A stretch of 37,322 bases of DNA from the IMG/VR virus record IMGVR_UViG_2908567220_000001, positions 1 through 37,322 of that record. One strand, given 5' to 3'. Every line of letters begins with the position of its first letter. Position 1 is the first letter of the stretch. Positions 9,594-15,482 of the stretch are shown piece by piece. The notes beneath the pieces are model-generated. The model was not told the origin of the DNA, ran no database searches, and saw only the letters and a program-made list of their open reading frames with translations. The position numbers were made by a program, and so were the translations under genes. This DNA comes from a virus (lineage: Duplodnaviria; Heunggongvirae; Uroviricota; Caudoviricetes).

Positions 9594-13274
<3,681 letters not shown>

Positions 13275-13300
<26 letters not shown>

Positions 13301-13820
13301 TCAGCAACCCCGGTATCAGTTCATCCAGCGCGGCTGCTTTGTTCATGGCTTTGATGATATCCCGTTTCAGGAAATCAACATGTCGGTTTTCCAGTTCCGG
13401 AAAACGCCGCTGTACCGAGAGAGGGATCCCGTCAAGAATACTGGCAATTTCACCTGCGATCCGTGACAGCACGAAAGTACAGAATGCGGTTTCCACCACC
13501 TCTGCGGAGTCTCTGGCATTCTTCAGCTCCTGTGCGTCGGCCTGCGCACGCGTAAGTCGATGGCGTTCGTACTCAATAGTCCCAGGCTGGAGATCTGCCT
13601 CACTGGCAGCCCTGTAATCCACAACCTCTTTACGGAGTTTTTCATTTTCGATATCAGCTTCCCTCTGCGCATACCACTGAATTGCCATGGCGGTATCAAA
13701 TACAGATTCAACGCCCTTACCACCTCCGGAGACGCAAGGGAGTCCCTGAGACTGCCAGCGTTCAATCGTTCGCGGATCCACGTTGAAAATTTCGGCAAGT
13801 TTCTTTTTATTAACCTTCAT
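13275..13820 (-). CDS. Nu1: terminase small subunit Nu1
   Basis: 181-aa ORF; C-terminal two thirds near-identical to recalled lambda gpNu1, N-terminal DNA-binding domain diverged; adjacent to cos. Confidence 0.9.
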
Positions 13821-13847
13821 GAAACAGTCTCACAATAAATACAGGGG

Positions 13848-13957
13848 CCGACATGAAAGTGCCCGAAAATGACTTTTTTAGGCGTTTTCATGTCGGACCT
13901 TTTACGGATTCGATATTAGAAAAAACAAATAGTTATGTTCGAGAAGTACCGACATGA
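13848..13957. promoter_or_regulatory. cosB-like region with three copies of CCGACATGA (two direct, one inverted)
   Basis: CCGACATGA at 13848-13856 and 13949-13957, inverted copy TCATGTCGG at 13888-13896, between Nu1 start and cosN. Confidence 0.5.
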
Positions 13958-13996
13958 TTTTCCCCGGAAAATTTTCATAAATAGCGAAAACCCGCG

Positions 13997-14008
13997 AGGT
14001 CGCCGCCC
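13997..14008. other. cosN cohesive-end site
   Basis: Minus strand from 14008 reads GGGCGGCGACCTCGCGGGTTTTCGCTATTTATGAAAATTTTCCGG, matching the recalled lambda left end; the other flank matches the lambda right-end terminus. Confidence 0.8.
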
Positions 14009-14214
14009 CGTAACCGGTCGGATCGCCGGAAAGGACCCACGAAATGATAATGATTATCATCTATATAAGGTTTATCACAACATGTGAGTACGCCATCAAA
14101 CCACGAGAAATAATCAATTATGACGCAGGTATCGTATTAATTGATCTGCGTCAAATTAACGTAAAAGCAACTTCAGATAATACAAATCAGCAACACTGAA
14201 TATGGGGAAACATT

Positions 14215-14400
14215 ATGTCATCAAAGAACAGAACCCGCAGAACAACAACCCGCAACATCCGATTTCCAAACCAGATGATTGAACAAATTAACATCGCTCT
14301 TGATCTGAAAGGTTCAGGAAACTTTTCAGCGTGGGTTATTGAAGCCTGCAGAAGAAGGCTGTCAACAGAGAGTTCGGGTATGAATTACATAATTAAGTAA
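14215..14400 (+). CDS. small putative DNA-binding protein, ribbon-helix-helix-like
   Basis: 61-aa ORF with GGGGAAA RBS 6 nt upstream of ATG; basic N-terminus then predicted strand-helix-helix (RNIRFPNQMIEQINIALDLKG...NFSAWVIEACRRRL); fold assignment is inference. Confidence 0.6.
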   Translation: MSSKNRTRRTTTRNIRFPNQMIEQINIALDLKGSGNFSAWVIEACRRRLSTESSGMNYIIK

Positions 14401-15023
14401 CATGGTGTTCACAGAACACGCAGTTACCGGACACATCAGTTTTCCATTCGCTCCCCGGCAGTACAGGCTTCCCCTCTGACGGGATAGCCTGAAAAAATAA
14501 CACAGAAAATTATTTGTTATAATTAATATAACTTACTCAAAAAAAAGCGACGAGAAAATCAGCATCAACGAACAATAAGCGCCAATACGTGATAACAAAT
14601 GGCAGCCATATTTATCTGCAGTATAAGCAATGGACAGGATAACCACACCAGAAACCGTCAGCATAAAATCCATTTGAACTTCCCCGAACAAAATCGACTC
14701 ATCTAAAGATTTACAGCTCTTTTTATTATCAATATGTTAAAAGTAAAATAAACAGATGTTCAATAACACGAATACAAAAACGTGCTGAAATTCAATGAAT
14801 CCATTTCTGTGTCATCAATTAATAGTGATAAACATCCGGCTTCTTCCACCATCGCACCGGACAGGCGACTATGAGGGGACAACGCCGCGCTCCGTTAACG
14901 CGGTAAACCCCGGTGTGTATCGTTTTTGATTATCCCCGCACACTCGCGCAGAGGAGTCTCCCTGTCGGGCTGCGGTCTCTGTTAATGAGGGAATACAGCG
15001 ACGATACGGCGCATCAACAAAAC

Positions 15024-15482
15024 TTATTTCAGGCACTGAGTGCGGATATAGTCCTGTGCCCCTTCCAGTTGCTTGTGCATCGTCATCAGCCGCTCTCTGA
15101 GGGTGAAATAATCCCGTGTAACGGTGTCTGCCAGTTGGGGGCCGGTTGCATTATCCACGCCGGAGGTGGTGGGGGCTTCACGCACGGAGCCTGGACAGGT
15201 GGCGTTGATCCGCAGGCGCTTACGACCAGCGGCAACATCAGCGCGCAGAGTTTCATTTTCAGCTCTCGCATCGGATAATTCCCTCGAGTATTTTGCATCG
15301 AGCGCAGCAACATCGCGCTGGCGCACCTGCATATCAGTAATGGTTGCGTTCGCCAGCTTCAGTTCACTGGCTTTGTTATCACGCTGCGCTTTGTAGGTAA
15401 TCGCGTTATCACGGTAATGGTCTGTTGCCATCCACAGCGCACCACAGGCCACCAGCAGAATAACGATAAACGCGGAAAGCAT
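15024..15482 (-). CDS. Rz: i-spanin Rz
   Basis: N-terminal TM segment then coiled-coil ([14 protein letters not shown]...), lambda Rz-like; ATG at 15482 gives 152 aa; alternative GTG at 15497 overlaps the upstream ORF stop. Confidence 0.8.
15086..15271 (-). CDS. Rz1: o-spanin Rz1 lipoprotein, embedded in the +1 frame of Rz
   Basis: [22 protein letters not shown]... lipobox Cys, Pro-rich (PPPPPAW); entirely inside Rz. Confidence 0.75.

Follow-up and report, generated by a model that had tools for sequence, protein, structure and literature searches.

The 37,322-nucleotide stretch of viral DNA analysed here (the whole of IMG/VR record IMGVR_UViG_2908567220_000001, positions 1 to 37,322, referred to below as the window) is a lambdoid prophage of E. 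coli. Beside the packaging-termination subsite of its cos region lies a perfect 8-1-8 palindrome which, judged by its sequence, is a real Fur site, far beyond chance and already known. The site itself was described between 1994 and 2007 as the nohA and nohB Fur box. Our survey adds that this Fur box is not peculiar to the two cryptic prophages of K-12: lambda itself has it, and it is conserved as part of the flank of lambda-type cos sites. We think that the palindrome is probably a high-affinity Fe2+-Fur operator that dampens transcription toward both sides of the cos junction, and not the promoter region of the 61-aa gene that lies nearby.

The features of the locus are as follows.

11375-13300, minus strand: terminase large subunit gene (gpA homologue), a 641-aa gpA-like ORF that is so annotated in the E. 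coli SF-088 locus
13275-13820, minus strand: terminase small subunit gene (Nu1/NohA/NohD homologue), matching Pfam Phage_Nu1 over its full length (E 6.5e-90)
13821-13996, minus strand: cosB-equivalent interval, from cosN to the Nu1 start, with repeated and inverted CCGACATGA-type sequences
13997-14008, minus strand: cosN, the 12-nt cohesive-end sequence, exact reverse complement of GGGCGGCGACCT
14032-14038, minus strand: cosQ, the packaging-termination subsite, reverse complement of GGGTCCT at lambda-like spacing from cosN
14044-14060, no strand: Fur box, perfect 8-1-8 palindrome ATGATAAT-G-ATTATCAT, orthologous to the K-12 Qin, DLP12 and lambda sites
14051-14065, no strand: likely second, overlapping and weaker Fur half-site at a +6 shift (TGATTATCATCTATA), suggested by the profile of 42 cos-linked sites and by the second site of Chen et al.
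14113-14153, no strand: interleaved 8-bp inverted repeats, ATCAATTA/TAATTGAT (14113-14120 and 14138-14145) and TGACGCAG/CTGCGTCA (14121-14128 and 14146-14153)
14215-14400, plus strand: 61-aa gene of the YlcI/YnfO family (DUF3950, Pfam PF13132), divergent from the terminase genes

The window has what defines a lambda-type cos, namely cosN, the spacing of cosQ and Nu1/A-type terminase genes beyond cosB. Its cosN aligns with the position of the annotated cos site in the DE3 record, and its cosQ aligns with the annotated cosQ of phage 434 and with the GGGTCCT at lambda 48473-48479. These coordinates bear out a sequence-only reading of the window, which had placed the region next to cos. The genes for Rz/Rz1 and lysozyme are further to the right on the minus strand. 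Identity with the right end of lambda, 434 and DE3 is 87-89% over 13960-14400, and 13821-14214 can be aligned with these three phages and with the nohA-ynfO and nohD-ylcI intergenic regions of K-12. Across 13800-15100, E. coli SF-088 is 99.8% identical to the window, and related sequence is present in 4639 of 5426 complete E. coli genomes, in up to 14 places per genome.

The cosB region also contains a 30-nt imperfect inverted repeat (13840-13904) with CCGACATGAAAG-type arms, probably binding sites for the terminase small subunit. A search against Rfam returned only sub-threshold miRNA-type matches on the cosB inverted repeats, and these are spurious.

The palindrome contains a perfect 7-1-7 Fur motif (TGATAATnATTATCA, 14045-14059; core TGATAATGATTATCA). 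When up to two mismatches are allowed, this is the sole 7-1-7 site in 37 kb, where shuffled sequences would be expected to give 0.17 at the same threshold; the next-best sites have three mismatches. The best match to the 19-bp Fur consensus GATAATGATAATCATTATC is 15 of 19 positions, and it occurs in two registers, 14040-14058 on the plus strand and 14046-14064 on the minus strand. A 19-mer scan of the window at three or fewer mismatches gave no match; the 7-1-7 formulation is the informative one. The sequence-only reading had reported a Fur-like 16-mer at 14044-14059 that matched 14 of the 19 consensus positions. The 16-mer is present, as GATAATGATTATCATC, and it lies at 14046-14061, the best count against the 19-mer being 15 rather than 14; the stronger feature, the perfect 8-1-8 palindrome with its 7-1-7 motif, was absent from that account. 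The palindrome lies 6 nt from cosQ, on the flank that faces away from cosN. It is about 230 bp upstream of the gene for the small terminase subunit and at least 155 nt upstream of the start codon of the 61-aa ORF.

That the site is genuinely of the Fur type, as the sequence-only reading had proposed, follows from work on K-12 and CFT073. The orthologous palindromes are at 1636593-1636607 (Qin) and 580594-580608 (DLP12) in K-12 and at 48452-48466 in lambda. The 15-bp core in the window is exactly that of Qin, and the free centre base is all that separates it from the DLP12 core. Chen et al. (2007; PMC2189734) reported strong Fur-site clusters at nohB (25.3 bits, 579824) and nohA (22.3 bits, 1634624), with a second nohA site at 1634630, 6 bp from the first; the cluster coordinates convert to 580601 (nohB) and 1636600 (nohA) in NC_000913.3, the exact centres of the two palindromes. 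In the same study a nohA oligonucleotide was gel-shifted by 150 nM Fur. By the account given there, a nohA fragment had also been selected in vivo (Vassinova and Kozyrev 2000), and the reference that it gives for nohB is the Fur titration paper of Stojiljkovic et al. (1994). A ChIP-seq summit at 1634625 appears as "nohA" among the Fur-repressed sites of Myers et al. (2013). In CFT073, a Fur ChIP-exo peak (P53, 1424699-1424711) was found in iron-replete cells only (Gao et al. 2023). This peak falls on GTGATAATTATTCTCG, directly adjoining the cosQ of a CFT073 prophage, and is thus a positional orthologue of the site in the window. Taken together, the K-12 orthology, the Fur binding, and the peak and derepression in CFT073 (see below) indicate that the window carries another copy of a known Fur box with experimental support. 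The MG1655 Fur ChIP-exo table has no peak at either the Qin or the DLP12 site; if one assumes that reads from two near-identical copies map to both, multi-mapping may be the cause.

Lambda-type cos sites were gathered from viral contigs by means of the conserved half of cosN, and they resolve into 81 distinct types. The palindrome, with 0-3 mismatches, is present in 61 of them (48 with 0-1 mismatches and 13 with 2-3), always 3-7 nt beyond cosQ. The other 20 types lack it and have cosQ and cosN intact. The copy in phage phi80 is perfect; that in N15, CGATAAC-T-ATTATCG, has three mismatches. The perfect motif occurs once per locus, and only at cos. Neighbouring genes were scored for 58 of the palindrome-bearing types, three being too short. 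A DUF3950 gene adjoins cos in 34 types and every one of these 34 has the palindrome; the remaining 24 of the 58 have the palindrome and no adjacent DUF3950 gene, and what lies past the palindrome in these 24 is unrelated sequence. The gene that adjoins cos in N15 and phi80 points toward it, which leaves the palindrome without a divergent gene to control. Conversely, no Fur-like site lies within 500 nt of the DUF3950 genes of an Stx2a phage or of islands in Proteus, Salmonella and Klebsiella. The palindrome is therefore kept with or without the DUF3950 gene and is absent beside DUF3950 genes elsewhere, which indicates that it is part of the cos flank and that the gene is a separate module.

Among the collected loci, IMGVR_UViG_2698536428_000001 (locus segment 4150-4760) has two inverted lambda-type cos sites, each with cosQ and cosN, about 480 bp apart with their cosB sides facing. 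The pair adjoins capsid-like genes, nine further loci are arranged alike, and neither cos copy has a Fur palindrome. Such a locus may be a capsid-forming satellite (PICI).

A rival reading gives the palindrome a role in packaging itself. Terminase on its way to the downstream cos would reach the palindrome shortly before cosQ. With Fur tightly bound, the palindrome might be a functional accessory of cos that slows or pauses the motor or shapes the DNA ahead of cosQ, thereby aiding termination (cosQ recognition and cosN nicking), or it might mark or protect the right chromosome end. The palindrome does adjoin cosQ in lambda, 434, phi80, N15 and most cos types, whatever the neighbouring gene, including N15 and phi80 with no divergent gene for it to regulate. 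Furthermore, the "complete cos" inserts used by the Feiss laboratory start at lambda 48442 or 48446 and so include the palindrome (48452-48466), which means that it was never separated from cosQ in those constructs. However, a spacer that ranges from 3 to 7 nt does not keep helical phasing, and this variability, together with the roughly 20 of 81 types that have cosQ and cosN and no palindrome, argues against a strict packaging requirement. Lambda-type terminase packages PICI elements that carry lambda-like cosQ and cosN, a fact that may also count against the role, cosQ is described as a 7-bp site (Feiss 2015), and we found no publication that ties Fur to packaging or to cos function. We consider a packaging role quite unlikely. 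A broader proposal is that Fur is an unrecognised host factor of lambda-type cos that couples iron status either to packaging termination, as a pause or roadblock ahead of cosQ, or to the silencing of terminase in lysogens, so that iron starvation would change phage yield or prophage stability; this we regard as a distinctly long shot.

Two assignments were considered and rejected. The palindrome is not part of cosQ: it starts 6 nt beyond the 7-bp cosQ in the window, the spacer varies among cos types as described above, and in the annotation of phage 434 it falls outside the 7-bp cosQ. Nor is it an operator for the DUF3950 protein, because it is conserved in phages that lack the gene. The sequence-only reading had allowed that the site could belong to cosQ or to IHF recognition. 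The site is indeed linked to cos, but it lies outside the 7-bp cosQ, and the IHF consensus WATCARnnnnTTR has no match in 14041-14400, the nearest being at 14727. Even so, this alternative is closer to the truth than the link to the small gene.

The pattern of constraint bears on whether Fur is the protein for which the site is kept. Over 42 distinct cos-linked sites the constant positions read AAATGATAAT-(G/A)-ATTATCAT-(T/C)-T-(A/G)-CA. This is the profile of a 7-1-7 site with a free centre base, followed by a conserved CA that falls at the expected end of a second 7-1-7 displaced by +6 bp, and the conserved cos-distal flank (T-n-T-n-CA) fits two overlapping Fur sites. It is conceivable that the palindrome is kept for something other than Fur, whether a phage protein or another host protein that binds there or a structural element in the DNA of the cos flank, and that Fur binds merely through the resemblance to a Fur box, without physiological effect. 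The K-12 loci, which show no Fur-dependent change, would agree with this, as would the missing ChIP-exo peaks in MG1655; in addition, an FNR ChIP-seq peak maps to the same spot as the "nohA" Fur summit, so that other factors or artefacts can map there. On the other hand, the constrained positions are exactly those of the Fur consensus, including the variable centre and the second-site flank, Fur binds orthologous sites both in vitro and in vivo, and in CFT073 the occupancy depends on iron and both flanks are derepressed without fur. Comparison of the neighbouring genes also gave no candidate phage protein common to lambda, N15 and phi80. An incidental site of this kind is, in our view, unlikely.

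The expression data come from published Fur regulon tables. In CFT073 the genes on both flanks of P53 are derepressed in the absence of fur, with log2 ratios (fur deletion over wild type) of +2.95 for C_RS26755, +2.33 for C_RS07340 and +1.34 for the terminase large subunit gene C_RS07355. These results favour a Fur operator that lowers transcription both ways when iron is plentiful, and the derepression could also be indirect, for example through partial prophage induction in the fur mutant. In K-12 W3110, ynfO, ylcI and nohD are not derepressed by the fur deletion, their counts being very low and falling, and in MG1655 nohD is essentially silent in both the wild type and the fur deletion.

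We therefore prefer the two-way Fur operator, which would work as follows. In an iron-replete prophage, Fur would occupy the cos-flank site, probably as two overlapping dimers. The bound Fur would damp down transcription arising at the junction of the late and accessory genes with cos or running through it, both toward the terminase operon and toward whichever accessory gene adjoins cos. Low iron or the loss of Fur would relieve the dampening. Two parts of this scheme, occupancy of the copy in the window and direct transcriptional repression, are ones that we infer.

The mechanism is not founded on a promoter. Scans of the window, lambda and CFT073 gave no consistent overlap of a sigma-70-like promoter with the palindrome, and the promoter-like site that overlaps it in the window has no equivalent in lambda or CFT073, so that the overlap is confined to the window variant. 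That site arises from a 7-bp insertion at 14062-14068 (within TATAAGGTTTA), just beyond the Fur box, relative to lambda, 434 and K-12; the insertion creates a minus-strand promoter-like TTGTGA-16-GATAAT with its -10 hexamer inside the palindrome.

Some other observations on these prophages may be recorded here. In the W3110 fur deletion, the DLP12/Qin block ybcV, ybcW, ylcI, nohD, appY, ynfO and ydfO goes down and not up, appY being about 17-fold lower (PMC10164565 Dataset 3); nohD in MG1655 shows no such fall. About 700 bp from the cos-adjacent Fur site of the CFT073 prophage is a gene (1423654-1423980) for a 108-aa protein that has a TonB C-terminal domain; it could be an accessory gene with a link to iron that lies close to a Fur operator.

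The sequence-only reading had joined the Fur box and the TGACGCAG/CTGCGTCA repeat into a control region that would make the 61-aa gene iron-regulated. In favour of this, both elements lie upstream of the ORF, to one side of cos, and the palindrome is present in each of the 34 cos types that have a DUF3950 gene alongside. In CFT073, loss of fur derepresses the unit that diverges from terminase, which means that cos-distal genes can be under the control of the site. The distance of at least 155 nt to the start codon, with no plus-strand consensus promoter in a promoter scan, speaks against such control. So do the 24 of 58 scorable types, and N15 and phi80, in which the palindrome is present without the gene, the DUF3950 genes of the Stx phage and of Proteus, Salmonella and Klebsiella that have no Fur-like site nearby, and the failure of a fur deletion to derepress ynfO and ylcI. 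The palindrome is passed on together with cos regardless of DUF3950, and we judge it very unlikely that the Fur box is the regulatory region of this gene.

The repeat adds little to the case. Its arms are where the sequence-only reading had put them, at 14121-14128 and 14146-14153, but the perfect TGACGCAG/CTGCGTCA pair occurs in only 7 of 40 related loci; the right arm CTGCATCA is present in 28 of the 40. The ATCAATTA/TAATTGAT pair is better conserved (33 of 40). The two pairs are interleaved in the order X Y ... rc(X) rc(Y), the arms within each pair being 25 bp apart from centre to centre, and they form no simple 16-bp palindrome. A single 8-bp inverted repeat is near chance, with 0.27 expected per 360 nt, and three perfect ones are found in these 360 nt. 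The interval is too similar among relatives, however, for this excess to single out an operator.

The 61-aa plus-strand ORF, for its part, is real, as the sequence-only reading had held. It scores above the curated cutoffs of PF13132 (E 9e-19; 67.5 bits, cutoff 25) and NCBIfam NF041551 (35.2 bits, cutoff 30), and it matches phrog_949 (E 9e-32). The family forms 106 clusters at 50% identity among 1.8 billion proteins and is confined to mobile elements of the Enterobacterales; no published function for it was found. The ORF is best seen as an independent YlcI/YnfO module that happens to fill the cos-adjacent slot, and its product is probably a small DNA-binding protein. The label "RHH-like" given to it earlier is a plausible inference: the invariant core of the family (I-R-F ... 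F-S..V...C) and the two predicted helices would fit a ribbon-helix-helix fold. Two AlphaFold monomer models (pLDDT 63-66) place helices at 19-32 and 36/39-53, with a low-confidence N-terminal segment that is extended in the first model and a short helix (8-13) in the second. Foldseek searches of the PDB with both models gave no match, and neither did sequence and profile searches of the PDB. In hhalign the alignment with Arc was in the correct register at 9% probability, and CopG and NikR were below 1%. In the phrog comparison a HicB-like family reached E 0.012. The best 120 matches of a profile search of a large database were all DUF3950 members, with no other family among them.

Related genes occur in other settings. 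Lambda (NC_001416) has a 64-aa DUF3950 ORF at 48109-48303 on the complement strand, 87% identical to the window protein in the aligned core and not annotated in RefSeq; "lambdap79" is a different ORF on the other strand (47738-47944). Stx2a phage WGPS8 (locus segment 2094-2728) has a DUF3950 gene in the same slot, between the lysis and packaging genes and divergent from them; there it lies beside an HNH/HK97-type terminase, with 41 bp between the two start codons.

If Fur occupancy at cos is functional, terminase expression or DNA packaging would be tied to the iron status of the host in the best-studied family of phages, and polylysogenic strains would gain many strong sites that titrate Fur. 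Should the occupancy have no function, the palindrome would be a good example of a strong, conserved transcription-factor site without regulatory output. Either way, the DUF3950 gene is not to be annotated as iron-regulated on present evidence, and it is of some interest why a consensus Fur site should be retained next to cosQ in lambda-type phages.

Several known systems invite comparison. The 61-aa protein resembles the Arc, Mnt and CopG repressors in its small size, in an N-I-R-F-P segment like the N-L-R-W-P strand of Arc and in two predicted helices with an N-F-S cap motif after that segment, but no sequence, profile or fold match to them was significant. The palindrome resembles IHF site I1 of lambda cosB in that both are sites for a host DNA-binding protein conserved within the cos region. 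IHF has a demonstrated role in packaging initiation, whereas we know of none for Fur in packaging; moreover, the palindrome is on the cosQ side, in an interval without an IHF consensus.

The fhuA, fepA-fes and cirA promoters have the same kind of operator, a consensus 19-bp or 7-1-7 element with overlapping sites, and they share with the CFT073 orthologue iron-replete occupancy and flank derepression without fur. They differ from the cos flank in that no clear promoter underlies the cos-flank operator, its neighbours are packaging and accessory genes rather than iron uptake genes, and no regulatory output is seen from its K-12 copies.

The K-12 nohA (Qin) and nohB/nohD (DLP12) boxes are the same element as that in the window, located between cosQ and ynfO or ylcI and about 230 bp upstream of a Nu1-like gene. 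The window differs in having an A instead of a G before the core, which extends the palindrome to 8-1-8, in the 7-bp insertion just beyond the site and in its intact terminase genes, the K-12 prophages being cryptic. We found no studies of Fur at lambda cos, and the lambda RefSeq record annotates neither the palindrome nor the DUF3950 ORF. The right end of lambda has the same order, cosB-cosN-cosQ-palindrome, as do 434, phi80 and N15.
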